Source: Burkholderiales bacterium (GTDB lineage Bacteria > Pseudomonadota > Gammaproteobacteria > Burkholderiales > Burkholderiaceae_C). From it: DNA of 64,000 nt. The position numbers and the translations under genes are program-made. The notes beneath the pieces are model-generated. The model did not search any database. It was not told the DNA's origin and saw nothing but the letters and a program-made list of their open reading frames with translations. The DNA lies in NCBI GenBank assembly GCA_019509985.1, contig JAEKLF010000037.1, positions 8,127 through 72,126 on the forward strand, given 5' to 3'. Of the stretch, positions 19,266-64,000 are shown in pieces (the stretch's first letter is position 1; every line of letters begins with the position of its first letter).

Positions 19266-19280
19266 GGGAGGCTGGCGGCG

Positions 19281-46915: not shown

Positions 46916-46927
46916 GACCCGGTATTC

Positions 46928-46942
46928 GCGAGAACCGGGCCA
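46928..46942 (-). promoter_or_regulatory. Candidate sigma54 (-24/-12) promoter
   Basis: Minus strand TGGCCCGGTTCTCGC fits TGGCAC-N5-TTGC with exact GG/GC spacing. Confidence 0.55.
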
Positions 46943-46958
46943 GGTCTGGAAATAAGCC

Positions 46959-46971
46959 TAAGTGATTGATT
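46959..46971 (-). promoter_or_regulatory. IHF binding site
   Basis: Minus strand AATCAATCACTTA matches WATCAANNNNTTR exactly. Confidence 0.6.
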
Positions 46972-47028
46972 TCATTGAAACCAACGCCGCCAATCGCATA
47001 CCTCGGATACAGTGCCGCCACACTCACC

Positions 47029-47045
47029 TGTCAACGTCGTTGACA
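47029..47045. promoter_or_regulatory. Perfect 8-bp inverted repeat, candidate upstream activator site
   Basis: TGTCAACG-T-CGTTGACA. Confidence 0.5.
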
Positions 47046-47055
47046 CCCTGCCGCC

Positions 47056-48840: not shown

Positions 48841-50188
48841 AACCGGCCGCGTGATGCTGGTCGACGACGAGCCGGCGTTCCAGCGCCTGGGCGGCAACTT
48901 CCTTCGCAGCCTGGGCCACGAGGTGGACATCGCCGGCGACGGCGACGCGGCGCTGGCCCGCTTCGCCGAGCAGCGGCCCGAGCTGGTGCTGCTGGACCTG
49001 GCCATGCCGCCGCACATGGACCCCGAGCGCGGGCTGGAGCTGATCCCGCGGTTGGCCGGCGTGCCGGTCGTCGTGCTGACCGGGCACGGCGAGCACGAGC
49101 TGGCACTGCGCGCGGCGGAGCTGGGCGCGTGGGACTTCATCACAAAGCCCGTCGACCCCGACCTGTTGCGCTTCGTCGTCGCCCGCGCGCTGCGCAAGTC
49201 ACGGCTGGACGGCGAGCTGGTGCGCCTGCGCGCCGAACAAAGCACCGACGACCTGGGCCTGGTGGGGCAGACGCCGCCCATGCAGCAACTGCGCGCGATG
49301 GTGCGCCGCGTGGCGCCCACGCGCGTCAGCGTGCTGGTGCTGGGGCCTACGGGCACCGGCAAGGAGCTGGTGGCCCGCGCGCTGCACGACGGCAGCCCGC
49401 GCCGCGACGGGCCGTTCGTGGCCGTGCACTGCGGCGCGCTGTCGGCCGAGCTGCTGGAGAGCGAACTCTTCGGCCACCTGAAGGGCAGCTTCACCGGCGC
49501 CTACCGCGACCAGCCGGGTCTGGTGGAGGCCGCACACGGCGGCACGTTGTTCCTGGACGAGGTGGGCGAGATGCCCGCGGCCATGCAGGTCAAGCTGCTG
49601 CGCTTCTTGCAGGAGGGCAGCTTCGTGCCGGTGGGCGGTCGGGTGCAGAAGACCGCCGAAACGCGCGTGGTGGCCGCCACGCACCGCGACCTGGAGGCGA
49701 TGGTGCGCGACGGGGCATTCCGCGAGGACCTGTACTACCGCTTGAAGGGCGTGGTGCTACGCACGCCGCCGCTGGCCGAGCGCATGGCCGACGTGCCGGT
49801 GCTGGCCGCGCGCTTCCTGCAGCGCGTGGCGCCGCAGGCGCGCTTCTCGGCCGGGGCGCTGGCCTGGGTCACCGCGCGCGACTGGCCCGGCAATGTGCGC
49901 GAGCTGAAGGCCATCGTCGAGTCGGCCGGCGCGCTGCTACTGCCCGAGCAGAACGAGGTCGACACCGAACTGCTGCGCCTGGCCGCCGGCGACCACAGCG
50001 AGCCAACGCGCGCCGTCGAGCCGACCGCCAGCACCGGCGTGCTGGACGCGGCGCTGAACGAACTGGAGCGGCGGTTGATCCAGGACGCGATGAGCGCGGC
50101 CGGCGGCAACCAGTCCGAGGCCGCGCGGCAGCTTGGCGTGTCGCGCGTGGGGCTCATCAAGAAGCTCACGCGGCTGGGGCTACGCTGA
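48821..50188 (+). CDS. Sigma54-dependent NtrC-family response regulator
   Basis: REC domain (LVDDE, LLDLAMP), [23 protein letters not shown] (GAFTGA-like loop), [16 protein letters not shown], Fis-type HTH. Confidence 0.93.
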
Positions 50189-50548
50189 GCCGAACTCCTT
50201 CAACCACTGCCTGAGCTTTTTGCGCCCGTCGCTGTTGGTGCCGCGAAAGGCCTTGAGCGCCTGAGCGAGGAACTGCTGCTCGGCGGGCGTGAGGCCCGTC
50301 GGCTCGCGCTCCTCGTCGATCCAGCCGGCGGGCTTGGCGCAGTGGTGCTCGATCTGGCGCGCCAGCTTATCGCCGATGGGCCGGGCACCGCTCTTGGCCA
50401 TGGACCAGGTCGCGCCGCTGACGCCGATGCGCGCAGCCCAGGTGGCCTCCAGACCCTTGGGCGGGTCGCCCGCGGTGATGCGCTCCTCGGCGAAGCTCTG
50501 GAAGAGCGCGAGGGCGTTGAGCCGGCGGATGGCGGTGGGGCTGGACAC
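50180..50548 (-). CDS. Small HTH (XRE-like) protein, divergent from the tRNA/rtcB operon
   Basis: WAARIGVSGATWSMAKSGARPIGDKLARQIE...GWID resembles phage-repressor-type HTH domains; GTG start. Confidence 0.6.
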   Translation of the reverse strand: MSSPTAIRRLNALALFQSFAEERITAGDPPKGLEATWAARIGVSGATWSMAKSGARPIGDKLARQIEHHCAKPAGWIDEEREPTGLTPAEQQFLAQALKAFRGTNSDGRKKLRQWLKEFGSA

Positions 50549-50569
50549 GTGATGAGAGCGATCGACCGA

Positions 50570-50584
50570 GTGTTGTTAAAACAC
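50570..50584. promoter_or_regulatory. Palindromic operator candidate 1
   Basis: GTGTT-N5-AACAC. Confidence 0.45.
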
Positions 50585-50614
50585 TTCACAAGCATTCTAG
50601 GTGGTGCGCCGCGC

Positions 50615-50643
50615 TTGACCGCGACGTGAACAGTTTTCACAAT
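50615..50643 (+). promoter_or_regulatory. Sigma70-type promoter with overlapping palindromic operator
   Basis: TTGACC-N17-CACAAT; GTGAA-N5-TTCAC (50626-50640) overlaps the -10 box. Confidence 0.62.
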
Positions 50644-50714
50644 GCATGGATTCGCTCAACGCCGTTTGGCACTCGAACAACCCCCACCCGACCGAACCAC
50701 TTCCGCCCCCCGCC

Positions 50715-50894
50715 ATGAACCGCCACCTCTTCAACGTCATCGCACACCTCGGCTCTTCGAGCCGGCGCGATGGCGCCTGGATGGCGCCGGTCGAGGGACC
50801 GAAAGCGGAGGGCATGCAGCCCCAGGTCGCCTATGCCCACGACTGCGGTCGTGATCGTCATGACACCCACACATCGGGAGAAGGTCCCGGCTGA
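50715..50894 (+). CDS. Candidate leader peptide (59 aa; in-frame ATG also at 50646)
   Basis: Short ORF between the promoter and a terminator; stop is 23 nt before the terminator stem. Confidence 0.4.
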   Translation: MNRHLFNVIAHLGSSSRRDGAWMAPVEGPKAEGMQPQVAYAHDCGRDRHDTHTSGEGPG

Positions 50895-50917
50895 CGCCGC
50901 CCTTCCACGCTCTTCTG

Positions 50918-50958
50918 AGGCCCGGTATCCGCAAGGAACCGGGCCTTTTGTTTTGTTT
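50918..50958 (+). terminator. Intrinsic terminator / attenuator
   Basis: AGGCCCGGT-a-TCC-GCAA-GGA-ACCGGGCCT followed by TTTGTTTTGTTT. Confidence 0.85.
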
Positions 50959-51085
50959 CCGCCGCCGGGGCTGCCTCGGTGCCGCTGCGCAAGCGCAGCG
51001 CCTGCTCTTTCACAACTTGCATCGAGTGCCCGCCGACCACATCGGCGCGGCGCTCAAACTGGCAGGCGCCGAGGTTCGTCCTCGG

Positions 51086-51232
51086 CGGCCCTGCCCCATC
51101 TCGGGTGTGCCCACGCACAAGCATCGGCCGGCCCGGTGTGCATGTGCGCTCGGGCGGCCGCCTGTCGCGTGCAGCGACGCATCACTGGCTCGCGCAGGCC
51201 GGTCGCGTCGCGTGTGGACACAGCCGAGATGG
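51086..51232 (+). ncRNA. Candidate structured ncRNA with paired ends
   Basis: CCATCTCGG(g)TGTG pairs with CACA(g)CCGAGATGG; several internal hairpins; no convincing ORF. Confidence 0.4.
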
Positions 51233-51243
51233 ATTTGCCTTTT

Positions 51244-51318
51244 GCCCCGTTGGACTTCCGGTGAGGTCCTCGGCCCTTCAAGCCGAAGAGGCGGGTTCAA
51301 CTCCCGCACGGGGCACCA
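51244..51318 (+). tRNA. tRNA-Glu(TTC)-like, atypical C33
   Basis: GCCCCGT/ACGGGGC acceptor, GAC/GTC D stem, TCGGC-CCTTCAA-GCCGA anticodon arm, 4-nt variable loop, GCGGG-TTCAACT-CCCGC, encoded CCA. Confidence 0.8.
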
Positions 51319-51422
51319 GACCCTTCAACCCGAAGTCCCTCGTTGAGCTCACGCCCCGAGGGACGCAAACCGGCCGCAACGATTGGGCGGCGTCGGAACC
51401 CGTCACCGACAACCTTTCCCGT

Positions 51423-51499
51423 CCGGGCGTAGCTCAGCCAGGTAGAGCATCTGCTTTGGGAGCAGAGGGTCGCACGTTCAACTCGTGTCACCCGGACCA
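51423..51499 (+). tRNA. tRNA-Pro(TGG)
   Basis: TAGCTCAGCCAGGTAGAGC D arm, TCTGC-TTTGGGA-GCAGA, GCACG-TTCAACT-CGTGT, ACCA end; one C:A mismatch in the acceptor stem. Confidence 0.88.
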
Positions 51500-51509
51500 A
51501 CCATTTCAT

Positions 51510-51585
51510 GTCGCCATAGCTCAGCTGGGAGAGCGCCGGTCTGTCGAACCGGAGGTCGCGGGATCGAGGCCCGCTGGCGGCGCCA
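51510..51585 (+). tRNA. tRNA-Asp(GTC), atypical T loop
   Basis: GTCGCCA/TGGCGGC acceptor, CCGGT-CTGTCGA-ACCGG, T loop ATCGAGG instead of TTCRANY, GCCA end. Confidence 0.82.
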
Positions 51586-51692
51586 CATTTTTCTCCTGCG
51601 TGTTGTGCCACGTAGCCGTCCGGCTGCGCACCCGCATGCAACAGTCGGAGCACCGCTCCATCCACCGTGCCAGCCCAGGAAAGGAGGTCACC

Positions 51693-52253
51693 ATGCACGA
51701 CGTTTTGCAGTTGGACATCACCGGCCTTCCGCAGGCCTGGATCTCGGTGGAGGACGCCGCCGGCCTCGTGGCCACCGACTCGGTGGTCTGGTCAGCCGGC
51801 GAGCGGCCACTGGCCGTGCTGCGGGGCGGCTTCAACACCGTTACCGGCCGCCAGTCGATGCTGGAGGTGCCGCCCATCGTGGCCCTGCGCGGCGTGTCGA
51901 GGATAAACCTCTTCGACCTGACGCCGACCTTCAGCAAGCTCAAGGTCATCAAGCGTGACCGTTGCACCTGCGCCTATTGCGGCGACGTGTTCGACCTGCG
52001 TTCACTGACCGTGGACCACATCCAGCCCGACAGCCGCGGTGGGTCCTTAAGCTGGATGAACACGGTCGCGGCCTGCCGCAGCTGCAACATGCTGAAGGCC
52101 GACCGCACGCCGGACGAGGCCCGCATGCCGCTGCTGTTCGCGCCGTTCGTGCCCAGCCGCTTCGAGGACTTCATCCTCAAGGGCCGGCACATCCGCGCGG
52201 ACGTGCACGACTGGCTGGCTGCGCGCCTGCCGAAAGGATCTCGCCTCAGCTGA
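51693..52253 (+). CDS. HNH endonuclease
   Basis: AGGAGG RBS; RDRCTCAYCG...TVDHIQPDSRGG...WMNTVAACRSCNMLKADR. Confidence 0.92.
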   Translation: MHDVLQLDITGLPQAWISVEDAAGLVATDSVVWSAGERPLAVLRGGFNTVTGRQSMLEVPPIVALRGVSRINLFDLTPTFSKLKVIKRDRCTCAYCGDVFDLRSLTVDHIQPDSRGGSLSWMNTVAACRSCNMLKADRTPDEARMPLLFAPFVPSRFEDFILKGRHIRADVHDWLAARLPKGSRLS

Positions 52254-52383
52254 GGCGACAACGAATCTGCCGAGGAAAGCAGAGCGCTCACAGGTCGGGG
52301 TTTCGAAGCCCCACCGGTGCGCCAGGACCGGGTCCGCCCGTCGTCTCGGCGTATGCCGCCCCTGCCGGAATCGACGGATAGCC

Positions 52384-52438
52384 CGTGAGGCAAGGTTGAG
52401 CCGCAAGGCATTGGGTTCGATTCCCAACTTCACGACCA
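52384..52438 (+). ncRNA. tRNA-like mini-RNA (acceptor stem + T arm + CCA, no anticodon arm)
   Basis: CGTGAGG/CTTCACG 7-bp stem, A-CCA, TTGGG-TTCGATT-CCCAA, GCC-GCAA-GGC hairpin in place of the D and anticodon arms. Confidence 0.6.
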
Positions 52439-52439
52439 C

Positions 52440-52506
52440 TGGATAGCTCAGTCGGGTAGAGCAACGAACTAGTAGTTCGTCTGTCGCGGGTTCGACTCCC
52501 GCTCCA
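52440..52506 (+). pseudogene. Pseudo-tRNA (anticodon AGT) with broken acceptor stem and no CCA
   Basis: GCTC-AGTCGGGTA-GAGC, ACGAA-CTAGTAG-TTCGT, GCGGG-TTCGACT-CCCGC; only 4 acceptor pairs (TGGA/TCCA). Confidence 0.65.
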
Positions 52507-52772
52507 AAGCTTGGCCTTGAACGCCAATCCAAAACCGGTCGCAAGACCACCCGCCGAACGTGCGCCCCGGCCTTGGCCGGACCCGCGCATCAGCGGCCCG
52601 CGCTCGCGCGCCGGGCAAGCGGGGCTCTGCAACCACGGCCAGCCGAGAGCGTCTTCAGGGAGGAGGCGCTCGACGCGCACCGTGGCGCCAGGCCCTGGCA
52701 TCCGACGTCCGCACGGGTTGCTGTAACGGCACCCTCATCCCCATCACCACGCGTCACCACAAGGAGAACACC

Positions 52773-53909
52773 ATGACGATCAAGCGTGTGGCTGTGAAGA
52801 AGAACGAGCGCGGCATCCTGCTGCGCAATGGCGATTTCGAGCGCGTGCTGCAACCCGGCACGCACTGGCTGTTCGCCGGGCTGGACGAGCTGAAGGTGGA
52901 GCTGTTTGCCATCAGCCAGCCGGCCTTCGTGCACCTGCTGACCGACTACCTGCTGGCCAAGGAGCCCGCAGTCGTCGAGGCGGAGTTCCTGCGCGTCGAG
53001 CTGAACGAACACCAGGCGGGCCTGCGCACCGAGAACGGCGTGCTGGTCGAAGTGCTGCCGCCCGCCACGCGGCGCCTGTACTGGCGCGGCCTGGTGGACG
53101 TGCAGGTCGAGGTGATCGACCTGCGTGCGTCCGTCGAACTGCCCGCGGCCGTGGCCGCACGTCTGGCCCAGCCGCAACTGCGCCCGCGCGCGGTGACCGG
53201 CCTGGCCGGCGTGCTGCAGGTCGAGGTGCCGGAAACCGGCGCCGGCCTTCTGCGCGTGGACGGCAAGGTGGAGCGACTGCTGACCGCGGGTGCTTACGCC
53301 TTCTGGCGGTTCAACCGCAACGTGACGGTGGAGCTGGTGGACCTGCGGCTGCAGGCGCTGGAAGTGACGGGCCAGGAAATCCTGACCCGTGACAAGGTGG
53401 CGCTGCGGCTCAACCTGTCGGCCAACTGGCGCTACACGGACGTGCTGCGCGCGTTCGAGCAGTTGGCCAAGCCGGCCGACCACCTCTACCGCGAGCTGCA
53501 GTTCGGCCTGCGCGCAGCGGTGGGCACGCGCACGCTGGACGAGCTGCTGGAGAACAAGTCGGTCATCGACGAGGTCGTGACCGCCCAAGTGACGTCCAAG
53601 CTGGCCGGCTACGGCCTGCAGTTGGACGGCGTGGGCGTGAAGGACATCGTGCTGCCAGGCGAGATGAAGACCATCCTCGCCCAGGTGGTGGAGGCCGGCA
53701 AGGCTGCCGAAGCCAACGTGATCCGCCGCCGCGAGGAAACCGCGGCGACGCGTTCCCTGCTCAACACGGCCAAGGTGATGGAGGACAACCCCGTCGCCCT
53801 GCGCCTGAAGGAGCTGGAAACGCTGGAACGCGTGGCCGAGCGCATCGACAAGATCTCCGTGTTCGGAGGTCTGGACCAGGTGCTCAACGGGCTGGTGAAG
53901 CTCCGTTGA
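52773..53909 (+). CDS. Slipin (SPFH/band-7) family protein
   Basis: AAGGAG RBS; GQEILTRDKVALRLN, RAAVGTRTLDELL, RRREETAATRSLLNTAKVMEDNP..LRLKELE. Confidence 0.9.
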   Translation: MTIKRVAVKKNERGILLRNGDFERVLQPGTHWLFAGLDELKVELFAISQPAFVHLLTDYLLAKEPAVVEAEFLRVELNEHQAGLRTENGVLVEVLPPATRRLYWRGLVDVQVEVIDLRASVELPAAVAARLAQPQLRPRAVTGLAGVLQVEVPETGAGLLRVDGKVERLLTAGAYAFWRFNRNVTVELVDLRLQALEVTGQEILTRDKVALRLNLSANWRYTDVLRAFEQLAKPADHLYRELQFGLRAAVGTRTLDELLENKSVIDEVVTAQVTSKLAGYGLQLDGVGVKDIVLPGEMKTILAQVVEAGKAAEANVIRRREETAATRSLLNTAKVMEDNPVALRLKELETLERVAERIDKISVFGGLDQVLNGLVKLR

Positions 53910-53959
53910 GTGCCGCCCTGCCGGCTCGGCCGGCAGGGCTCCAACTCAAAGGAGAACCC

Positions 53960-54736
53960 ATGACTACGCCGTCATTGCAATCGGCCGTGCGGCGCGCCTA
54001 CGAAGTGTTCGGCGCCTACGCGGCACCCACCCAGCCGCTGGACGTCTGCACGTTCTGCTGCATGGACGAAGAACTGGAGCGCGAGATGCGCGCCGTGCCG
54101 TTGCGCAAGCTGAAGCGCCTGCACTTCTACGAGTACAGCACCGGCGCCAAGTCCGTCGATGGCCAGCCGGCCGACGAGGTGAAGTACCTGCTGCCACGCC
54201 TGCTCGAACTGCTGGCGGCCGGCGAGGAAACCCACCACTCGATCGAGCTGGCGCTGGATCGCGTGGGGCGCTGCCACGCCGGTGCCTTCAGCAACGAAGA
54301 GCGGGCCGTGCTCGACGCCTTCATGCTGGCCTGCTTTGACGCCTGCCTGCGCGGCGAGTGGGTGGCCGAGGACTTCTGGTACGACCTCGAAGACCCGCTC
54401 GCGCTGCTGGTGATGGCCGACTACGCCGGCCTCTCGCTGGCACCGTTGCTGCAGCACTGGACTGAACACCCGAGCCCGCAATCCACGATCCGCTTCGTCG
54501 AAAGCACCTACTGGGGTTTCTGGTCCAAGCACAAGATCACCAACGCCTTCGCGACCAACCGGCCGCGGCTGCAGGCAGTCTTCAAGGACTGGACGCTGTC
54601 GCTCGACACCAAGGCGGCCTTCACCATGAAGCTGCTGCTCCCTCATTTCCTGGATCAGGTCGAACAGACACCGTCCAACACCTGCGCGCCCTTCCCCGTG
54701 ATGGTGGACGCTGTGTTCGACCACCTGACCTACTGA
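53960..54736 (+). CDS. Hypothetical protein
   Basis: AAAGGAG RBS; CTFCC cluster, KYLLPRLLEL; co-oriented between slipin and rtcB. Confidence 0.7.
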   Translation: MTTPSLQSAVRRAYEVFGAYAAPTQPLDVCTFCCMDEELEREMRAVPLRKLKRLHFYEYSTGAKSVDGQPADEVKYLLPRLLELLAAGEETHHSIELALDRVGRCHAGAFSNEERAVLDAFMLACFDACLRGEWVAEDFWYDLEDPLALLVMADYAGLSLAPLLQHWTEHPSPQSTIRFVESTYWGFWSKHKITNAFATNRPRLQAVFKDWTLSLDTKAAFTMKLLLPHFLDQVEQTPSNTCAPFPVMVDAVFDHLTY

Positions 54737-54750
54737 TAGAAAGAACAATC

Positions 54751-55014
54751 ATGGAACCCCAACACATCCACGAAGACGTCCCCGGCGGCGTGCCACTGAA
54801 GATGTGGACGCAAGGCGTGCCAGTCGAAGACTCGGCCAAGCGCCAGCTGCAGAACGCGGCCCGCCTGCCCATCGTCTTCAAGCACATCGCCGCGATGCCC
54901 GACGTGCACTTCGGCATCGGCGCCACCGTCGGCTCGGTCATCCCCACCGTCAAGGCCATCATCCCGGCTGCGGTCGGTGTGGACATCGGCTGTTCTTCCG
55001 ACATCCACTTGTAA
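54751..55014 (+). pseudogene. rtcB: RtcB RNA ligase, 5' fragment interrupted at the DIGC motif
   Basis: LPIVFKHIAAMPDVHFGIGATVGSVIP...IIPAAVGVDIGC, then unrelated SSDIHL*; no rtcB remainder found in the window. Confidence 0.9.
54979..55008. other. Candidate recombinase core/attachment site (left junction)
   Basis: GTGGACATCGG-CTGTTCTT-CCGACATCCAC: 11-bp imperfect inverted arms (9/11) around an 8-bp spacer, exactly at the rtcB breakpoint. Confidence 0.6.
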
Positions 55015-55118
55015 CCCCATCCCGAAGCATGTAGGCTCCGCCCCCGAACAACGGGAACGAGTAGCCCCAGCCTCTTTTAGAGGCGAGTAGCCCTCCGCCC
55101 CACCGAGCAGGAGGAAGG

Positions 55119-55430
55119 GTGGCCATTCAGCGCAGATCGTTCGGAGTTGCCGTATTGGAGCGGCTGCGGGCCACCGCATGCACCACGGCCTTCGGGCGGT
55201 TGGATGGCCACTTCAAGCGCGATTCAACGTTCATCCCAACAAAGGACCCCAACACTGAGCGGTGGCACTGTTCCACCTCAAAGGGTGAGTGCGAGCTGCT
55301 GGTCAATGGCCCAAAGTGGTACGACACCAGAACCCGGGAGGGTGGAGGTGGCTCGATTGATCTAGCGATGCAGTTGTACCGACTCGACTTCGTCGATGCG
55401 GTGAACCTCTTGGTGGGCAGGGGCCTATGA
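55119..55430 (+). CDS. Small conserved-looking protein, first gene of the recombinase module
   Basis: AGGAGG RBS before GTG; KWYDTR..GGGGSIDLAMQL...DFVDAVNLL recalls the primase zinc-binding-domain tail; ATGA overlap with the next gene. Confidence 0.6.
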   Translation: MAIQRRSFGVAVLERLRATACTTAFGRLDGHFKRDSTFIPTKDPNTERWHCSTSKGECELLVNGPKWYDTRTREGGGGSIDLAMQLYRLDFVDAVNLLVGRGL

Positions 55431-56611
55431 ACCTCTACTTCAGCACCAAGGACTTTGCAGTCGACGGTCAGCACTACGAAGGCTTCCCGATTCTCGTGGA
55501 CGCCTCGGGTGCAGTTGTTGAGGTCGCCCTGCTCTTCTTCGTGGACGACCTCCTCAACCGCGGTGGCGCGCGAGACCTGAAAACGTGGGCTGCCTATGGC
55601 CGGCACATGTACGACTACTTCGGCTACCTGGAGCAGCGTCTGGCCTGGGATCACATCCCAGCTGAGGGTAGTGGACAGCTCTCACCACTAGCTGCCTACG
55701 TGCGATGGTGCGACACCGACGTCCGCAATGCTCCTGGCTACGTCAACGACAAGCGCGCGACCATCGAGCGCTTCTACGAATGGGCAAAGCGGGTCGGGCG
55801 CATTGATGAGCTGCCCTTCACCCGAAGTGAAGTCATTTCATCTAGCGCTGATGGGGTGCTTGCGCACGCCTCGGCAACTCGAGGCCGACGGTCGGCGTCC
55901 AACCTGCATCTGCCTGAGAACGACGACGACGTGCCAGACATGGTGCTGTCGCGTGGCCAGATCGACGCAGCGTTTGAACACGCGACGAATCCAACGCACC
56001 GTGCCGTCCTGCACCTGAGCCTGAATGCCGGGCTGAGAGCGGAGGAGCTCGCGACGTTCCCGATGAAGTACGTCGTCGACACCAGCAGGCTATCGCCCAA
56101 GGTGAAGACGGTGCCCGTGACCCTTGATCCGAAGGACATGCACACCAAGAACGACAAGAAGCGAACAGTGCGACTGTCGGTGCGGTGCATGAACCTGCTC
56201 TGGCAGTATCGAGAGGCCGTTAGGCCACGACTGAGGGCTCGGGCGAAGGGAGGCCCCGCCGACAGCGGAGTGCTGCTCCTGACCCGGTTTGGCGTGCCAT
56301 TCGTCGCCGACGGCTTCGTGTCACCCATGGCGCGCCTAGGGAAGCGTGCTGGATTCCACATCCACCCGCACATGCTCAGGCATACGTTTGCCACCCATAC
56401 GCTAGCCTCCCTCGAGGACTTGAAGCGTGCCGGCAGGCTCAGGAGCTCGCCGCTCGTGGTTCTCAAGCGTCTTCTGGGCCATTCGAAGACAACCAACACA
56501 GAACGCTACCTGCATCTGCTGGATTCAATCGAGGACGTCTACGGCACCCGCTACCAAGCGGAGATTGACGAGTTGGCGCTGGGGTATCTGAACGAGGCAG
56601 AGAAGAAGTAG
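55427..56611 (+). CDS. Tyrosine recombinase 1
   Basis: NAGLRAEEL (R), HPHMLRHTFA (HxxR), LLGHSK (H), TERYLH (Y). Confidence 0.92.
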   Translation: MNLYFSTKDFAVDGQHYEGFPILVDASGAVVEVALLFFVDDLLNRGGARDLKTWAAYGRHMYDYFGYLEQRLAWDHIPAEGSGQLSPLAAYVRWCDTDVRNAPGYVNDKRATIERFYEWAKRVGRIDELPFTRSEVISSSADGVLAHASATRGRRSASNLHLPENDDDVPDMVLSRGQIDAAFEHATNPTHRAVLHLSLNAGLRAEELATFPMKYVVDTSRLSPKVKTVPVTLDPKDMHTKNDKKRTVRLSVRCMNLLWQYREAVRPRLRARAKGGPADSGVLLLTRFGVPFVADGFVSPMARLGKRAGFHIHPHMLRHTFATHTLASLEDLKRAGRLRSSPLVVLKRLLGHSKTTNTERYLHLLDSIEDVYGTRYQAEIDELALGYLNEAEKK

Positions 56612-58219
56612 ATGGCGAAGAAGAAGGACTTCGGGGTCGGAGGGCCGCCACCGAAGCCGGTGATCCCCATTTTCCCGACGAGTAGGACGCTCGAACGTGC
56701 GGCCGTGAGCGCTCTCGTGATCCCGCTACCTCATGGCGTCGACGCGGAGTTCGATTGGTGGGAGTACCTCGGGCATGGGTTCGATGACACGGTGTCGGCT
56801 ATCACGTTGGAGATGCGCGCCATGGTTGCGCGCGGCAGACCGAAGCCCTTGGCCTTGAAAACCATCGCCAACGGCGGCGTGATTCACTGGTTCAGGTTCT
56901 GCGTTGAGCGCGCCTCTGCGGGCACACCACCGACGTTGGACAGCATCAACGCCGAGACGATTGAGGTCTTTGCCGGTTGGCTCGCGACCCGTTTGAAGCC
57001 CGACGGCGAGCTGTGGTCGTTGAACACTGCGCGGACGGTCTACCAGAAGGTCAAGACCGTGCTGGAGGCACTTGCAGATCGCAAACTGCTGCCAAGGGAT
57101 GGGCTGTTTCCTAAGAACCCTTTCCCGGGGGCCACTGACATCAACCGGCGCCGCAACCACATACTGCCTCTGTCTGATGGCGAACGAGAGCGCATCCTCC
57201 GCCCGCTGGCGATGCAGGTTGCCCAGGTGTACGACGGCACCCACCCCGGCACACCGTCGACGCAATTGGGGCTGTGCGTCTTTGCCATCTTCTTGAAGAC
57301 CGGCGTCAACCCCACCCCGTTCCTCGAAATCCCTCGGGACCTGCAGAAGTGCTTCATGAGTCATCCGCGCGTGAACACGAGGATTCTGGTGACCTTCAAG
57401 CGCCGGGCGAACAAGCGCACCAAGACGCCGCTGGAGCCTGAGTCTCGGGTGGTGTCGCTGGACGTCTATAAGCTCTGTGAGCGCGTTCTGGGCCTCACCG
57501 AGGGTGCGGCCAAGCTGGCGGTTGGCACGAAGCTGGAGGGCTTGCTGTGGGTCTACGAGCTCGATGGTGCACCCCGTGGCATGACGACCGAGACGCTGAG
57601 CGCCGTCGCCAACGCATTCACGTCGCGTCACGCCCTTGTGCGCGACGACGGCACCCGCCTGAAGATGAGCAGCCAGCTCTTCCGCAACACCAAGCTCAAT
57701 CGCGTCTGGCGAGCGTCCAAGGGCGACCTGCTCGCAACGGCGCGAAGCGGATCGAACACGCCGACTGCCGCTCAGCGATACCTCGCAGTCACTCCCGACA
57801 TGCTCGACGAACATCGCATGGCAGGCGAGGTGCTGGTGGACACCCTGTCGGCTGCCGGCCCGAGGGACAACACGCCGCACAGCGGCTGCAAGGATGCCTT
57901 CAACGGCGAGTTCGCGCCGAAGGACGGCTCGCCTTGTGTCGACTTCCTCTCGTGCTTCCGATGCAAGTCTCAGGTCATCATCCAGGACGACCTCTACAAG
58001 CTGTTCTCGTTCTATTGGGCGCTGTTTTCGCAGCGGAGCCACATTGGCCAAGACAACTGGCGCAAGCTCTTCGGCTGGGTCACGAGGGTGATTGACCGCG
58101 ACATCGCGCCGAAGTTCGATGCGACGGTCGTGGAACGAGAGAGGGCTCGCGCCCGCTCCGAACCACACCCGATGTGGCGGTCTCCGTCGGTCTTAGCTGC
58201 ACTGAGGTCCATCCAATGA
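56612..58219 (+). CDS. Tyrosine-recombinase-fold protein 2 with degenerate catalytic residues
   Basis: KTGVNPT (N at the usual R), QLFRNT, GSNTPTAAQRYL; C-terminal Cys cluster CKD..C..FLSCFRC; starts directly after the upstream stop. Confidence 0.7.
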   Translation: MAKKKDFGVGGPPPKPVIPIFPTSRTLERAAVSALVIPLPHGVDAEFDWWEYLGHGFDDTVSAITLEMRAMVARGRPKPLALKTIANGGVIHWFRFCVERASAGTPPTLDSINAETIEVFAGWLATRLKPDGELWSLNTARTVYQKVKTVLEALADRKLLPRDGLFPKNPFPGATDINRRRNHILPLSDGERERILRPLAMQVAQVYDGTHPGTPSTQLGLCVFAIFLKTGVNPTPFLEIPRDLQKCFMSHPRVNTRILVTFKRRANKRTKTPLEPESRVVSLDVYKLCERVLGLTEGAAKLAVGTKLEGLLWVYELDGAPRGMTTETLSAVANAFTSRHALVRDDGTRLKMSSQLFRNTKLNRVWRASKGDLLATARSGSNTPTAAQRYLAVTPDMLDEHRMAGEVLVDTLSAAGPRDNTPHSGCKDAFNGEFAPKDGSPCVDFLSCFRCKSQVIIQDDLYKLFSFYWALFSQRSHIGQDNWRKLFGWVTRVIDRDIAPKFDATVVERERARARSEPHPMWRSPSVLAALRSIQ

Positions 58220-60099
58220 GCGCTGCCCTGGCCTATGAGCTACATGCGGCTGCGTTGGAGCTGTCGCCGGCGGAGCGAGACGACCTCGTCATCTCGTACG
58301 TTCAGCTGGCGGGCGGCGAGCGCATTCCGCTCTCTCGCTACGGTGACCCCGTCTGGAACTACACGCCATTCTTCCCCGGCGCAGCCCGCGGCAAGCAGGA
58401 CAAGGAGATTGTCTGGGCCAAGACTCCTGACGAGTGGGTTCCGTCGATGCGAAGCGCAGCCGCTGCGCTCACATACCGCAAAGCTCCTGGCGGTGTCCGA
58501 CTGGACCCGTCGACGATCCCCAAACGGCACGTCATCCTGAATGCCTTCGCGAAGTGGGCCAGCTCAGAAGGCATCAGGCGCTTCGGCGACGTCCGCGCTG
58601 CCGACTTGACCAGGTACATCCAGAAGCTTCGCGACGACGGTCTCTACGACCGTAGCCTGGCCAGCCACATTGCCATCCTGCGCAAGGTACACGAGCTTCG
58701 GGGAGCAATGCTCGACAGCTTGACCGACGAAGCTGCGACCGCGCTGCGGTTTGACCAGCTCGGCGCGCTCTGGGAGCCTGACGCGGTCAACGACCGCCGT
58801 ACTGAGCTCATCCCGCTCGCTGAGGCGTCAGCATTGTTCGTGGCCGCCAGAGAGCACCTGACCAGGGCACCAACCCTACTGCGTCTGCGTGACGACCTGG
58901 CTGAACAGTGGGAGGCCGCAAAGGTCACCTGGGACCGGAGGGTATGGGGTGACGACGTCAAGAAGCCGGCGGTGCGAGCTGCTGGCTTCCGAGACGCCCT
59001 TGAGTTCGAGTCCGCCGTCAGTGACATCCGGACTGCGGCCTACATCGTCCTCGGCATCACCACGGGTTGCCGCGTCCATGAGCTTGGCGAGGCGGAGGTG
59101 GGCTGCGTCTATCCGGACACGGTCGACGGTGAGACGTATTGGTGGCTGAAGGCCGCGACGCGCAAGATCGGCGACGGACCGATGCGTTGGCTGGCACCTG
59201 AAGTGGCCAAAGAGGCCTCCGACGCCCTCGAATGGCACTCTGCCCCCTTGCGAGCCCGCATCGCCGCTGAGCTGCCTGTCATGCGAGAGCAGTTCACAAC
59301 CGCAACCACAGAAGCGGAAAGAGCCAGGCTGGCGGCGCATATTCTTGAGCTTGAGCGCAATGCCGACCGCTTGTTCCTGAGCGAGTCGACGCGGGGCGTT
59401 GTCTCAACCGACACCAAGTCGCACAACAAGCAACTAAAGGCCTTCGCTGCACGCAAGGGCATCAAGCTCGGCGTGCCGCTTGCCACCCACCGGTTCCGCC
59501 GCACCTACGCCGTTATCGTCGTGCATCTGAACAAGGGGCCGCGCATCGACATGGTGACGCTGCAGCGCCACTTCAAGCACGCGAGCGTGCTCATGACGGA
59601 GTGGTACGCCGAGCTGTCCGAGACCGACAGGGAGCTCTACGAGCTCATCGAGACGGAGACAGGCTTCTTCGACATGGCGCTGGTCGACCACTGGCTGGAT
59701 GGATCGACGCCGCTGGCCGGCGGCCTGGGTGCCCGAATCAAGGCGTACGCAGGCAAGCATCACCAGCCCATCTTCTTCAAGACCCGGCGCGAGTTCGTTG
59801 ACAGCATCCGGGAGGGCATCAACATCCGGAGCACAGGGCACAGCTGGTGCCTGGCAGAGGCGAAGGACTGTGGCGGGCAAGGGCTTTTCGATGCTCCCCA
59901 GTGCGGCAGTTGCGGCAACGGCGTCATCGACGACAACTTCCGAGAGGTGTGGCAGAACCTTCGTCAGGACCACGAGGACTTGTCCAAGCTCGACGACATT
60001 GGGCCTGGCGGCAGGGCAAAGGCGGCGAAGGGCCTCGCAGCGGCCGAAGCCGTCCTCGCACAGCTTGAACAACCTGACGACGAGACCGCCGATGTCTGA
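58216..60099 (+). CDS. Tyrosine recombinase 3
   Basis: TTGCRVHEL, THRFRRTYA, HFKHASVLMTEWYA; C-terminal Cys cluster; ATGA overlap with the previous gene. Confidence 0.88.
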   Translation: MSAALAYELHAAALELSPAERDDLVISYVQLAGGERIPLSRYGDPVWNYTPFFPGAARGKQDKEIVWAKTPDEWVPSMRSAAAALTYRKAPGGVRLDPSTIPKRHVILNAFAKWASSEGIRRFGDVRAADLTRYIQKLRDDGLYDRSLASHIAILRKVHELRGAMLDSLTDEAATALRFDQLGALWEPDAVNDRRTELIPLAEASALFVAAREHLTRAPTLLRLRDDLAEQWEAAKVTWDRRVWGDDVKKPAVRAAGFRDALEFESAVSDIRTAAYIVLGITTGCRVHELGEAEVGCVYPDTVDGETYWWLKAATRKIGDGPMRWLAPEVAKEASDALEWHSAPLRARIAAELPVMREQFTTATTEAERARLAAHILELERNADRLFLSESTRGVVSTDTKSHNKQLKAFAARKGIKLGVPLATHRFRRTYAVIVVHLNKGPRIDMVTLQRHFKHASVLMTEWYAELSETDRELYELIETETGFFDMALVDHWLDGSTPLAGGLGARIKAYAGKHHQPIFFKTRREFVDSIREGINIRSTGHSWCLAEAKDCGGQGLFDAPQCGSCGNGVIDDNFREVWQNLRQDHEDLSKLDDIGPGGRAKAAKGLAAAEAVLAQLEQPDDETADV

Positions 60100-60505
60100 A
60101 GAGCTCACCACCCGGAAGAAGCTGACCCTGGCGTTCGCCAGGCTAAAGCGAGATGCCGCCAAGGCCGGGAAGCCTGGCCCGTCTATCAGCGCCGTTGCTC
60201 GCGAAGCCGGCGTCAGTCACACCCTCGTTCACACCAAGTACCCGGACATCGCTGACCAAATTCGCGAGGTGAGCGGCCGTGGGCCCAAACAACAGCTAGA
60301 AAAGCAGCGCACCGCGGCGAAGCGGTCCGAGGACCGAGCTGCGGAACTGCGCGCGGAGCTTGCGGACCTGAAGGTCCAAAACCGAGGACTCGCAAGTGAG
60401 AACGCGCGCCTCCTTCTGCTCGTACAAAGCCTAGAACAAAAAGTCACTGCCCTTCAGTCTGGCTCCAAGGTTGTGCAGTTGAAGCCGATGCGCCGTCCAA
60501 ATTAG
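60092..60505 (+). CDS. HTH + coiled-coil accessory protein (TnpC/DUF6262-like)
   Basis: SISAVAREAGVSHTLVHTKYP HTH followed by a heptad coiled coil; 8-nt overlap with recombinase 3. Confidence 0.7.
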   Translation: MSEELTTRKKLTLAFARLKRDAAKAGKPGPSISAVAREAGVSHTLVHTKYPDIADQIREVSGRGPKQQLEKQRTAAKRSEDRAAELRAELADLKVQNRGLASENARLLLLVQSLEQKVTALQSGSKVVQLKPMRRPN

Positions 60506-60553
60506 GTGCAGATGTCGCGCCAATGACCAAGCCGTTCCAAGCAATGATCGACC

Positions 60554-62313
60554 GTGGTTTTGAGGTCCTATGCGTATCCCATGCCGCGCCCGACTAGCTC
60601 GCTCGGCTCAAGGCGAGCCGATTACCGGCTCAGCGCCTGCGACGGTGCTGGTCCTGCGATGGAAACCGGAGTGGGTGGCGCCGCAATCGCGATGTGGCTG
60701 GTGCTCGGCAACTTGACAGCAGTCTCCGGCTCAACTTCTTCGAAGCCGAACAGGCCCTGCGGGATGCTGCGTTTGCTGAGTGGGTTGATAACCGCATCGG
60801 GGAACGCCATCGGCGCCTGCAGGAAGTGCTGATCGACCACCTTCCGCAATGAAGGGTCCTTGACCAAGCCGACCAGGTGGTCGATGTCAGCGGCGTAAAG
60901 CACCTCGATGAAGTAGCCCTTCCCAGCCGCCCGCTCCTGGGCCACTGCAACCATGGCCCTGGCTTCCGTGCTCAACTCGCCGGTCACCCAGAGTTCGAAT
61001 CGAAGGTCGAGCTTGGACAGCTCGTTGTTCTTGCGTGTCTGTGAGAGGACGACCGGCAGGCGCTTGTTCAGCCATTTGTCGACCTCGTCGTCGCTGAGCA
61101 GGTTGCCAGGCACTAGGCCCTTGCACTCGATGAACCGGATGTAGCGGTTCTTGACGATGACCCGTACATCGACCTCCGCCACGTCCTTGCCGCCCTCACG
61201 ATAAATCTTATTGAGGGTGATGTCCGCCGGCGGCTCAAGTACGCGAACGACTTCCGCCACGACGAACTCGAAGAGGGCCCCTCGCAGGGTGCCCGCCGCA
61301 CCTTCCGCCTTGCCCAAGCGCTCGAACAGCTGGCTGAACAGGACCGGGTCGACAGCCTTTTCCGCCGCCTGACTCAGGGTCCTGAGCAACTCCAGCAGAG
61401 CCTTGGCCACGTCGGTCCCAAACAGAGATTCGGGCGTCGCTGGAACGATGCCCGCCCTACGGATGAGGTCCAGCGCACCTGGCGAATAGCGGTTGGCGAC
61501 GAAGAACTGCAAGCAACGGCCCATCCCACGGAACTGCCGCAGCGTGGCGCACTTGTAGAGAAACGGGCTGACGTCGTCGACACCCACCACCTCGGTCATG
61601 AGCACGTCGATGACAAGGAAGCCGGGCTTAGGCTTCGCCGAGCTTGACCAGTCAGCCAGCGGGCCGAGGAAGGATGGCGCGGACAAGTCCCAGCTGAACG
61701 CGCCGACCAACGGGGCCGTCCCCGTCCTGTCAGCCCTCAGCTTGAACGAGTTGAAGCTGCCGAGTCCGAGCTTGGCTGCCCACTCCTGGATCGACTGCAA
61801 GAGCACCCTCTCGGCGATGAGCCGAGCACGAACTGCGGGATAGCGGTCGTCAAGGTATGAATCGCCACGGGCGAATGCCACGCAGGGCCCGACGCCGGGC
61901 ATCTCAACCATTTGCAGCAACTCCGCATCCACGAGCCGCTTGACGACTTCATCGCTGGAAATCTGCCGCTGCCCATCTGATGTGCCTGCAGCCGCCGAGA
62001 AGTGCATGGCCGGAACGATCCCGCCCCGGGCAGTGAGCGCCTTGATGGCACGGGCATACGCACCGTTTCCATCCATCAGGGCCGCGGCCAGGCGATCCCA
62101 GAACTTCGGGCTGCCGTACTGGCTTTCGAGGTACAGGAACTGGGCGCCACGCGGAAGCACCAGATTCACTGCACGGACCGACAACGTGCGTCGCTCGATG
62201 CGCTTGCGAGCAGCCGCGGGCGTGATGTTCAGCTTGGCTGCCAACGCTGCGGCCAGAGAACCACTGGTCATCGGACCATTGGCGGCTAAGAGGGCTGCTA
62301 TCTCGACGCTCAC
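60554..62313 (-). CDS. Cargo protein: N-terminal HTH-like region plus PD-(D/E)xK nuclease-like domain
   Basis: NITPAAARKRIER; AEVDVRV...FIECKG near the C-terminus; GTG start. Confidence 0.6.
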
Positions 62314-62325
62314 ATGTCCACCTTG

Positions 62326-62519
62326 CCGGATGTCACACAGCGCTATTTATAACCGGTACTGATATATGCCTCGGCACGTTTTTTTCGCCAAGGCAGAGAA
62401 GCGCCTTAACAAAATCAACAACTTAGCAGATGGCAACGGACCTCGGATGACATGCCCGATGTCACACTCGTCGTCGGGAGACGTTCCGTATCGTACTGAT
62501 CTGTACTGAGCACGATACG
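62326..62519. promoter_or_regulatory. AT-richer control/recombination region with IHF site and repeats
   Basis: AATCAACAACTTA (62413-62425) matches the IHF consensus; CC(G/C)GATGTCACAC at 62326 and 62455; CGTATCGT-N17-ACGATACG at 62487-62519. Confidence 0.5.
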
Positions 62520-62799
62520 AATACAGTATCAAACGGGCTTGCTTGCGATGCCGGCCGGCCAGTCTGGACCGGCACCCTGTCGACGCTTTAGTTCAGGTTG
62601 AAAGCCGCATCATCAGTTGGCCCAGTCGGACCGCCGCCCTCAGGCTCACGGTCGATGCCGCACAGGAGAGCCGGACAAGCGTGTCGTCTCCGCACCGACC
62701 GAAGTCCTTCCCGGGCGTCAGCGCGACCCTGGCAGGGGCAGGCCGATGCGCTCAAGACCAGCGAGCACCAGCTCCCGGCGGGCCGCGAACTCCTCTCGT

Positions 62800-63531
62800 C
62801 TAACTGCCATTGCCCAATCGCAGCGGATGGTCGGCGGGTAGCGCTGCAACACACGTTGCGAGCTTGCCCTCTAGCTCGGCGACCAGCGGCTCCAGGTGCG
62901 CTACGACCAGTTGGGGAGAGTTCAGCACTTCTGGGAAGACCCACGATGACGCCGCCCGGGACATGTAGTCGGCTTCGAACGGGTAGACGCCCCTGAAAGC
63001 CTTCAGGATGGTGTTTTCCGCGAGCTTGATGACGGCATCGCCCGAGTATCCAAATTCCCCGACATCAGGCCGTAAGCCGTGCTCGATGCGGAGGGACTTC
63101 GGAAGCTCCCAGTAGGTGGCTCTGCATTTCTGCGCCCGGTCATTGAGCTCGGCGAGCCGCATGGCGATGACCTCGGCGCTCGCCGCGGCTTCAGACTCGG
63201 CCAGGGACTGCAGATGGACGTTGGTGAGCGCTGCGGCCTCCTTCGCACCGATCTGGAAGCCACTCTCGGACAGCAGCATGCCCCGGTCAGCGCCGGTGTC
63301 GGCGACTATCTCGCGCAGGGCGAGTACGTGTAGCTTGTTCACCGGGCTCTGCCAGCACTTGCACTCGACGATCCAGGTCACCTCGAAGCCCACATGGTGC
63401 GACTTCACGAGCACGTCGACGTCGTGCTTCGTTCTGGCGCCCTGCACCGTAACGTCAGTTTGTGCATCCATCCCCAGCGACCGAAAGAAGGCCGCAGCTT
63501 CCTCTTGATAGTCCTGCCACGCAGCAGCCAT
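62800..63531 (-). CDS. Mrr-like restriction endonuclease
   Basis: WQDYQEEAAAFFRSLG, HDVDVLV, WIVECKCW, GADRGMLLSESGFQIGA. Confidence 0.82.
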   Translation of the reverse strand: MAAAWQDYQEEAAAFFRSLGMDAQTDVTVQGARTKHDVDVLVKSHHVGFEVTWIVECKCWQSPVNKLHVLALREIVADTGADRGMLLSESGFQIGAKEAAALTNVHLQSLAESEAAASAEVIAMRLAELNDRAQKCRATYWELPKSLRIEHGLRPDVGEFGYSGDAVIKLAENTILKAFRGVYPFEADYMSRAASSWVFPEVLNSPQLVVAHLEPLVAELEGKLATCVAALPADHPLRLGNGS

Positions 63532-63775
63532 GTGTCGCCCTCAAGCTGTATAGAACCGGATGCTACGAGACCGCCTGCTAGAGTCAGCCTTGAAGCCGGC
63601 GTTGCCGGCTTTCCTGCTTTTCCTCCCTGAGCAGGAGCTTCGGCTCGATGACAGCGACGAGGCTTTGCCGCCCCGGCATGTCCGGGGCGTTCTTTTTGGC
63701 CGACGCGCGGCCCGAGAAGCTGGCCTCCGCATGCCGCTTAACAGCCGTGTTACATTTTTCCTAGGGGGGAGAAAA

Positions 63776-64000
63776 TTGGTATACGTCGACGATGCCGATG
63801 TGCCTAAATACGGTCGTGGCTGGTGCCATTTGACGGCGGACAGCCTTGGTGAGCTTCATGCCTTCGCAGCTCGCATTGGCCTACCTGCCCGCGCCTTCCA
63901 TCGCGGCGCGCGCCACCCCCACTACGACATCACAGCCGACCAGCGGCTGAACGCCCTGCGCAGCGGAGCGCATCCCGTCAGCCCTCGAGAGGTCGTGCGC
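63776..64000 (+). CDS. DUF4031-like protein, 3'-truncated by window edge (absent from ORF track)
   Basis: GGGGGAGA RBS then TTG; VYVDD...WCHLTADSLGELHAFAARIGL...HPHYDIT. Confidence 0.75.
   Translation, partial: MVYVDDADVPKYGRGWCHLTADSLGELHAFAARIGLPARAFHRGARHPHYDITADQRLNALRSGAHPVSPREVVR

Follow-up and report, generated by a model that had tools for sequence, protein, structure and literature searches.

Conserved protein-coding genes such as dusA and ssb are well known as attachment sites. The dusA-specific integrases, for example, use a conserved protein-coding stretch for this purpose (Farrugia et al. 2015, PMC4482086). Among the described systems, the closest to the present case is the strand-biased circularizing integrative element (SE; Idola et al. 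2023, PMC10214605). Published SEs circularise, and the recombination of attL with attR gives a circular copy from one strand and no empty site (PMC10214605). They have been reported only in Gammaproteobacteria, and homologs of their Tfp and Srap proteins were not found in Betaproteobacteria (Idola et al., PMC10214605). Here I describe an interrupted rtcB gene in a 64,000-nt stretch of the Burkholderiales bacterium contig JAEKLF010000037.1 (hereafter the window, to which all window coordinates refer). The interruption is very probably the left junction (attL) of an SE/Tn554-type site-specific integrative element of about 19.4 kb in a Roseateles-like betaproteobacterium. In the literature searched, no use of rtcB as an attachment site was found, and it is absent from the papers and supplements on SEs and on GInt genomic islands. 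One paper on rtcB plus an element proved to deal with an unrelated IS26 insertion.

In the window, the sequence from 54960 to 55014 reads ...GCG GTC GGT GTG GAC ATC GGC TGT TCT TCC GAC ATC CAC TTG TAA. The encoded protein thus reads ...V-D-I-G-C, followed by SSDIHL and a stop. The rtcB 5′ fragment (54751..54992, + strand) consists of codons 1–80 and the TG of the Cys81 codon, as located by Pfam RtcB, tblastn, and intact relatives. It lies in a chimeric open reading frame (ORF) of 87 aa (54751..55014, + strand), in which RtcB residues 1–81 are followed by SSDIHL and a stop codon from the element end. This ORF matches positions 1–51 of the Pfam RtcB profile (E 1.6e-17). Residues 1–81 of a Roseateles RtcB are 97.5% identical to the stub in tblastn, and the match stops at 54993. 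After GGC TG, the intact relatives L003 and L016 continue as GGC TGC GGC ATG (...GGCTG/CGGCATG). The first non-rtcB base is therefore the third one of the Cys81 codon, T54993; the rtcB homology ends with GGC TG at 54992 and the element starts at 54993. The G+C content is 62.6% in the element versus 70.5% in the flank. An initial annotation, made from the sequence alone, had placed the end of the rtcB homology at GAC ATC GGC TG(T) and an element insertion there, and this is borne out by Pfam, tblastn, and the intact relatives. The insertion of a mobile element in rtcB at the D-I-G-C codons is thus confirmed.

RtcB is a 3′-phosphate/5′-OH RNA ligase, and the Cys of this motif and the Asp three residues earlier are metal ligands. 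The stub motif aligns with VGFDINCG of the solved Thermus RtcB structure. Because the gene is cut after residue 81 and no second RtcB-coding stretch is present in the whole 64-kb window, rtcB is inactive while the element is integrated, as the initial annotation had held; the split leaves an 81-residue stub and a promoterless 3′ part, and RtcB is lost. A pattern scan of the junction found neither a sigma-70 promoter nor an intrinsic terminator. The best NCBIfam match of the stub was an "intein-containing RtcB" model, and the archaeal RtcB intein is presumably placed directly before the same cysteine. However, an intein was ruled out, since a stop codon lies six codons past Cys81 and the inserted DNA holds separate genes.

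The 6-bp unit CGGCTG (54987..54992, + strand) adjoins the left end of the element and comprises the third base of the Ile79 codon, Gly80, and the first two bases of the Cys81 codon. It is probably the crossover region. On its right lies the left terminal inverted repeat of 24 nt, TTCTTCCGACATCCACTTGTAACC (54993..55016, + strand), which resembles the SE motif C. This 24-nt end is kept in L037, L038, L004 (Delftia), L036 (Ralstonia), L050, and L054, with the shared junction pattern ...GACAT-NGGCTG-(T/G)TCTT(C/G)C(G/T)ACAT...TTG(T/A)AACC. In seven attL junctions, the first base of NGGCTG tracks the Ile codon of the host (ATC, ATA, or ATT). Therefore, the boundary between host and element lies to the right of that base. 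Further inside, two copies of a subterminal direct repeat, CGAGTAGCCC, flank a hairpin, GCCTC-TTTTA-GAGGC (55058..55093, + strand). The repeats and hairpin are kept in L054 and partly in L037, and they may serve as an accessory binding site.

The right end of a related element was found in L039, a metagenome-assembled genome (MAG). Its attR reads ...GTATGTAGTAAGAA/CGGCTG/CGGCATG..., and then the rtcB frame is open for residues 80–405. In longer form, this junction is ...GGTAACAGTTAGTATGTAGTAAGAA CGGCTG CGGCATGATC..., and about 12.7 kb separate it from the core genes upstream. When reverse-complemented (TTCTTACTACATAC...GTTACC), the right end agrees with the first 15 nt of the L050 left end at 14 positions. 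Since the right end is an imperfect inverse of the left ends, the element probably has imperfect terminal inverted repeats. CGGCTG adjoins both types of end, the left one in the window and the right one in L039. Beyond the shared 6 bp, the next outward base is T in the window attL versus A in the L039 attR, in two different elements. The presence of 6 bp next to both ends fits the SE donor-footprint model and an ordinary shared overlap region equally well. The initial annotation had expected the remainder of rtcB downstream, and a 3′ part starting with G-C-G-M does adjoin the right end in L039; that of the window element is predicted to lie beyond the window.

Several further observations were made around these sites. 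In L039, the place directly left of intA, at which one would look for the rtcB 5′ part, is taken by a Pnkp/Hen1 RNA-repair operon (L039 1866–6624). In L003 (2607–2625), a relative whose RtcB N-terminus is 98% identical, DIGCGM is intact, but a frameshifting deletion of 28 nt begins 8 nt past CGGCTG on the right. The deletion product (P0001) has 5 member sequences and the intact form (P0121) has 30. Either activity of the element or an unrelated event could have left this deletion. Three Roseateles-type RtcB clusters (P0362, P0378, and P0388) break at about residues 290–310 and then continue with unrelated tails, such as ...EDVY/PLACAAFGWQ... on 6 contigs. They may reflect additional insertions, or rearrangements, at another site of the gene.

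The initial annotation had also described a lox/dif-like palindrome at attL, with one arm from the gene and the other from the element. The arms are placed as it described, GTGGACATCGG at 54979–54989 in the gene and CCGACATCCAC at 54998–55008 in the element, with an 8-nt spacer, but they fall short of a true inverted repeat. The left arm, whose reverse complement is CCGATGTCCAC, pairs with the right arm at only 9 of the 11 positions. What the two arms have in common is a direct repeat, GACATC. The window contains 41 pairs of the 11-8-11 type that are complementary at 9 or more of the 11 positions, versus a mean of 25.6 (range 14–36) in mononucleotide shuffles, and a repeat search did not report the arm pair. 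Given the 9/11 match and the frequency of such pairs in the shuffles, the palindrome is at chance level and is evidence of nothing. A genuine lox-like geometry would come from both element ends, as imperfect inverted repeats, around CGGCTG in the circle.

Inside the left end, four core ORFs of 394, 535, 627, and 137 aa occupy positions 55427–60505. They abut or overlap each other, and the four genes are translationally coupled. The first encodes an IntA-like tyrosine recombinase of 394 aa with an R..HxxR..Y signature (55427..56611, + strand), which matches Pfam Phage_integrase (E 2.6e-15) and is XerC/XerD-like according to NCBIfam; GLR, HMLRHT (HxLRHT), and GH..T..Y are conserved in six homologs. 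The second encodes a Tfp-like, degenerate recombinase-like protein of 535 aa (56612..58219, + strand). In this protein, G.N.TP replaces Arg-I, Q or S replaces the box-II His, and RHRY is missing. It has no Pfam match, and its profile similarity to IntB and IntA is weak; its family comprises 379 clusters at 50% identity (E up to 1e-3). The third encodes an IntB-like large tyrosine recombinase of 627 aa, again with R..HxxR..Y (58216..60099, + strand). It matches Phage_integrase (E 2.9e-5) and a SAM-like N-terminal domain, conserves G.R..E, H..RR.YA, and FKH.S....Y in a six-sequence alignment, and is similar to IntA with an hhalign probability of 87%. The fourth gene overlaps intB by 8 nt (60092..60505, + strand) and encodes a Srap/TnpC-like small protein of 137 aa with a helix-turn-helix-like N-terminus (its HTH_Tnp_1 match is weak) and a coiled coil. 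Pfam thus matches Phage_integrase in proteins 1 and 3 only. The RHRY motifs were assigned by eye on alignments of six homologs, not from structure, and a phmmer search of PDB sequences was uninformative for proteins 2 and 3.

The Tfp-like and IntB-like proteins both end in a C-terminal Cys-rich motif. The two motifs are conserved (window 57880–58000 and 59830–59930), read GC.D...C.DF..C..C.S and H.WC....CGG.G.....C..C...ID, and are aligned to each other in the profile comparison. They may be zinc-binding modules. Upstream of intA, an ORF of 103 aa (55119..55430, + strand) was called on the Joint Genome Institute (JGI) and Logan contigs. A 65% identical ORF occupies the same position in L054, while none is present in L037–L039, and the Pfam and NCBIfam searches with this ORF gave no match.

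How does this module compare with those of the known elements? In BLASTP, the Tfp-like protein is 28% identical to WP_010794484 over the full length (E 2e-53), and the Srap-like protein is 38% identical to WP_008567186 over 79 aa (E 1e-12). These two proteins are listed as Tfp and Srap orthologs, respectively (Idola et al., Additional file 3), and a tblastn search of plasmids revealed that they are the products of the second and fourth genes of one Pseudomonas megaplasmid module with the same four-gene layout. IntB is 28.5% identical over 93% to the integrase gene of SE-bearing Pseudomonas plasmids (E 3e-53). The gene order intA-tfp-intB-srap, at the left end and with similar gene sizes, is the same in the SE-bearing plasmid L041 and in NZ_CP013125, which was flagged as SE-positive by Idola et al. 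In both systems, RHRY is present in IntA and IntB only and Tfp lacks it, the reading frames overlap and are coupled, and the target-site preference is strict. The likeness probably extends to imperfect terminal inverted repeats beside a 6-bp unit (the SE motifs C and C′ being 13–19 bp). The median SE size is 15.7 kb, compared with about 19 kb for the window element and about 12.7 kb for the L039 element. No conjugation genes were seen. Plasmid relatives of the module occur in Burkholderia, Paraburkholderia, and Cupriavidus. With identities of 28–38%, the window element appears to be a distant member of the SE group.

There are also differences from the published SEs. The hosts found in this study are Roseateles-like bacteria, Delftia, Massilia, Ralstonia, and Burkholderiaceae MAGs instead of Gammaproteobacteria. 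The Tfp-like protein is 535 aa in length, while a 550-aa cut-off was used in the SE study. The termini of the window clade are TTCTT/AAGAA, in contrast to the ...GTA ends of published SEs, and the target is rtcB instead of bcp, insJ, yjjNt, and others. Tn554 of Staphylococcus and Enterococcus (TnpA, TnpB, and TnpC) likewise has an ordinary and a roughly 630-aa tyrosine recombinase plus a small TnpC-like protein. Its insertions are extremely specific in site and orientation, a 6-bp junction unit travels with it from site to site, and its terminal inverted repeats are imperfect (PMC10214605); the present element seems to agree in these points. However, Tn554 lacks a Tfp-like gene and resides in Firmicutes, and the likeness is drawn by description. 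Unlike the dusA-specific integrases, which resemble it in the choice of a conserved protein-coding stretch, the window element does not restore its target gene. In summary, this is a new clade with a new target of a known kind of element, not a new mechanism.

Is the same target used in other hosts? With the 87-aa stub as the query, many N-terminal RtcB fragments from varied backgrounds were retrieved, all of them ending in DIGC followed by SSDIHL, SSYIHL, SSDIYL, SSDVYL, SSDILL, SSDIFL, or SCDIVL. At least six other host lineages have relatives of the element at the identical position, which makes seven lineages with the window, all at rtcB codons 79–81. In Delftia acidovorans (L004–L013), only the first part of IntA is present on the contigs, and it is about 61–69% identical. 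The IntB of a Burkholderiaceae MAG (L037) is 70% identical, that of Massilia sp. 9I (L038) 62%, and those of two pairs of metagenome contigs 61% (L050/51) and 64% (L054/55). The L039 MAG, with its attR in rtcB, has a 54% identical IntB. The megaplasmid of Ralstonia solanacearum YC45 (L036) carries a remnant, in which the left end is followed by a deletion reaching RtcB residue 271. The initial annotation had proposed that the element targets a conserved coding motif, and had asked for relatives at the same codon in other genomes. Both points are answered by these junctions in Delftia acidovorans, Massilia sp. 9I, the Ralstonia remnant, and the MAGs.

A Zorya-like ZorABCD defence island precedes the rtcB stub in L050/L051 (L050 1–9651). 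In the plasmid collection, the listed rtcB matches are full-length except for the Ralstonia YC45 remnant, and in 234 of the 245 matching records 80% or more of rtcB is present. In E. coli, 80% or more of rtcB lies in a single place in 4851 of the 4858 genomes that have the gene, with no sign of this insertion. Pattern scans of viral contigs for attL and attR gave only chance matches of 17–19 nt, with no RtcB or recombinase nearby.

The right end of the window element would lie about 10.4 kb beyond the window, at a window-equivalent position of about 74364, as judged from gene calls and contig ends on other assemblies. The element would then span from 54993 to about 74364, or 19,372 bp. The JGI gene list gives cargo genes up to an HTH_31 gene, and then a + strand ORF that runs from locus position 19270 off the contig end. 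Since L001 coordinates equal the JGI locus coordinates plus 143, a Logan contig of 19,432 nt ends at locus position 19289. If its last 30 nt are taken as a k-1 overlap with intact rtcB alleles that starts at CGGCTG, then CGGCTG would lie at 19260–19265 and the ATG of Met83 at 19270, which is the called start of the ORF. The predicted right junction of the window element is a GTATGTAGTAAGAA-like end followed by CGGCTG CGGCATGATGGCC... and the remaining part of rtcB. Some 323-aa "RtcB" proteins that start at Met83 were considered as attR products and rejected, as they are cut at contig ends.

Several points weigh against the assignment to an SE/Tn554-type element. The identity to published SE proteins is only about 28–38%, Betaproteobacteria yielded neither Tfp nor Srap homologs in the survey by Idola et al. 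(PMC10214605), and the mobility of the clade is predicted from sequence. No single genome was seen with both junctions. The left side of the L039 element lies outside rtcB, where Hen1/Pnkp and an RHH gene precede intA with no left-end motif. The arms of attB are without clear similarity to the element ends. The right end of the window element and the 3′ part of its rtcB are predictions, as the L001 sequence breaks off 7.8 kb before them. Counted from the predicted Met83 ATG, the ORF on the JGI contig stays open for at least 328 codons, whereas the Roseateles RtcB would end after 323, and the C-terminus of this ORF is unexplained.

A mechanism for the SE/Tn554-type element may be proposed as follows. 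The recombinases would bind the imperfect terminal inverted repeats, TTCTTCCGACATCC... on the left and, as taken from a relative, ...GTATGTAGTAAGAA on the right. The ends would be joined around a 6-bp spacer to give a circular copy. The circle would then recombine with one chromosomal site, the CGGCTG in the Ile79-Gly80-Cys81 codons of rtcB. I infer both the circular intermediate and the position of the crossover in CGGCTG. Metal ligands of the ligase lie in the V-D-I-G-C-G motif, whose DNA is therefore nearly invariant across hosts. rtcB is a dispensable RNA-repair ligase gene. Nearly invariant codons in a dispensable gene would make this site a portable "safe harbour", which may be the simplest reason for its use.

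The initial annotation had gone further and suggested that excision could restore rtcB and make RNA repair switchable. As a regulated, reversible switch, the element would excise precisely under stress, rebuild rtcB, and turn RNA repair on again, comparable to the skin element in sigK or to "active lysogeny". The presence of CGGCTG at attL in the window and at attR in L039 speaks for such a switch, since conventional double-strand excision would restore GAC ATC GGC TGC GGC ATG exactly. In addition, both rtcB fragments seen are still open reading frames. Read depth bears on the same question. The depth is about 140–162 in the left flank (9 kb) and 65.6 in the element in metagenome X1, about 75–105 and 41.6 in X3, and about 7.9 and 7.3 in X4. 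In X2, it is 20.7 in the proximal 4.8 kb of the left flank, 9.7 further left, and 25 in the element. The element-to-flank ratios among these metagenomes of one study are about 0.43, 0.45, 0.9, and at least 1.2. The same runs have contigs that match the rtcB 5′ end and continue with CGGCATGATGGCCTGCAAG..., a region conserved across species. The presence of the element is polymorphic among very close genomes, and a flank at about twice the element depth in two metagenomes indicates that element-free chromosomes coexist. However, the depth ratios fit excision and strain mixture alike, and co-occurring strains that never carried the element would explain them equally well. Moreover, the SEs, the closest characterised family, form no empty site on attL x attR recombination (PMC10214605). 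The Ralstonia copy is decayed with part of rtcB deleted, and L039 is without the rtcB 5′ part, unlike what a maintained switch would leave. Neither a recombination directionality factor nor a stress-linked regulator was identified. A reversible switch is thus unlikely.

In run X2, the segment 50137–54942 and the element are at about twice the depth of the chromosome further left (20.7–25 versus 9.7; region 46000–54942). The rtc-proximal segment and the element may be present in a second genomic context in this run.

It is slightly more doubtful still that the loss of rtcB serves a purpose, either for the element and its cargo, by blocking the re-ligation of RNAs cut by abortive-infection or toxin cargo, or as a reversible RNA-repair switch. 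Cargo genes possibly relevant to the RNA-cutting idea are those for a HEPN AbiV and a PDC-S06 AAA_13 ATPase in relatives.

Another candidate is the GInt, the ginABCD genomic island (Bardaji et al. 2017, PMC5385486). It was considered first, as GInts have three recombinase-like genes and a small TnpC-like gene at the 5′ end with variable cargo, have been reported from Betaproteobacteria, and use sites within or beside conserved genes (ssb and an ABC transporter gene). It was dropped on gene order, motifs, and the Tfp/Srap match. In GInts, RHRY is present in GinA and GinB and the degenerate GinC comes third, whereas in the window element the degenerate protein is the second and RHRY is found in the third. 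The repeat shared between the window attL and the L039 attR is 6 bp, compared with imperfect direct repeats of 10–11 nt in GInts. Proteins 2 and 4 match listed Tfp and Srap orthologs rather than proteins listed as GinC and GinD, while GinA–D were compared by description only. It is therefore quite improbable that the element is a GInt. A recombinase-in-trio (RIT) element, with three tyrosine recombinases of about 315–410 aa that all have the catalytic Tyr, between 34-bp inverted repeats, was also ruled out: the proteins here are 394, 535, and 627 aa, the second lacks the motif, and there is a fourth small gene.

The distribution might also have arisen with no site-specific targeting, through the spread of one insertion by homologous recombination of the rtcB flanks or through vertical inheritance of a single ancient insertion. 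Every host found belongs to Burkholderiales, and the first 81 RtcB residues are 68–82% identical at the amino acid level, which is enough for some exchange. On the other hand, the closest relatives of the window host keep an intact 405-aa RtcB with N-termini 97–98% identical. The left flanks and gene neighbourhoods of the carriers are wholly different (an rtcR operon, a Zorya island, and a GGDEF/BLUF region), and no two elements carry the same cargo. Each host's own Ile codon sets the first base of the 6-bp core, and a dedicated recombinase module and conserved terminal repeats stand exactly at the junction. These features point to site-specific insertion, not vertical inheritance or chance, and leave very little room for the alternative.

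The junction was also found in independent assemblies. A JGI contig of 30,392 nt spans it, with the same 87-aa ORF and the same genes on either side, as does the Logan contig L002 from another run. L001 is identical to window positions 54963–64000 and then extends past the window. In three further runs, a Logan contig of 19,432 nt begins exactly 30 nt (k-1) to the left of T54993; this is the expected behaviour of a de Bruijn assembler at a branch point and therefore counts for a genuine junction. Although the window is from a metagenome-derived assembly and the rtcB 3′ part lies outside it, an assembly chimera or a plain deletion of the 3′ part is hardly credible, as the junction is spanned or abutted in these assemblies and recurs in the isolate genomes of Delftia CCUG 274B and Massilia sp. 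9I, the 3′ part is present at the L039 attR, and the + strand ORF of at least 328 codons on the JGI contig starts exactly at the predicted Met83 ATG.

The cargo of the window element appears to consist of defence or DNA-modification genes. Following the core genes is an ORF for a 563-aa protein (60622..62313, − strand), which was called on all assemblies and had no match in Pfam, NCBIfam, or PADLOC. Next is a gene for an Mrr_cat restriction-endonuclease-like protein of 243 aa (62800..63531, − strand; Pfam Mrr_cat E 8e-14, with a weak PADLOC PDC-S02 match). The cargo then runs out of the window (63560..64000, + strand), starting with a DUF4031 gene, and continues on L001 and the JGI contig with ThyA-like, aGPT-Pplase3/ADDT, Peptidase_M78, DUF5677, HTH_31, and other genes. 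The Mrr-like, DUF4031, ThyA-like, aGPT-pyrophosphorylase clade 3/ADDT, and Peptidase_M78 genes form a module (window 62800–64000, on L001 to about 12137). Its ThyA-like and aGPT-pyrophosphorylase genes are of the thymidine-hypermodification type, which is otherwise known from phages, and in this case they lie within a chromosomal integrative element. The same module was found elsewhere without the recombinases or rtcB, for example in L023, in L024, and in an L035 defence island that also has AbiV, SIR2, and a reverse transcriptase. When metagenomes were scanned with the cargo aGPT-pyrophosphorylase, the source contig of the window was not among the matches. An Rfam anti-hemB (Burkholderia RNA 7) match at 63611–63697 (+ strand; 56.1 bits versus a gathering score of 49.5) sits in the cargo, between the Mrr-like and DUF4031 genes. 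The cargo of the relatives includes a HEPN AbiV in L039, a PDC-S06 AAA_13 ATPase in L054, and HAD_SAK_2 with a large DEAD/MZB helicase in L050.

On the other side of the junction, window positions 51244–52510 hold four tRNA genes with an HNH endonuclease ORF (51639–52253) set among them. The tRNAs are Glu-TTC, Pro-TGG, Asp-GTC, and an unusual Thr-AGT. This group lies directly upstream, and a Band_7 gene, a 258-aa ORF, and the rtcB stub follow. In eight related loci, no tRNA genes adjoin rtcB.

Taken together, the case is that of a fairly ordinary site-specific element with a conserved, dispensable gene as its landing pad, and "switchable RNA repair" is unsupported. It extends the four-protein recombination system of the SE/Tn554 type to Burkholderiales, where a dedicated survey found none. 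The clade offers one precisely defined attB, 6 bp in the RtcB metal-ligand motif, and has cultured carriers, Delftia acidovorans CCUG 274B and Massilia sp. 9I. In these carriers, target recognition, the roles of Tfp and Srap, and the formation of an empty site become directly testable. For genome annotation, calls of "partial RtcB" or of rtcB pseudogenes in these lineages mark an integrated island of defence genes.

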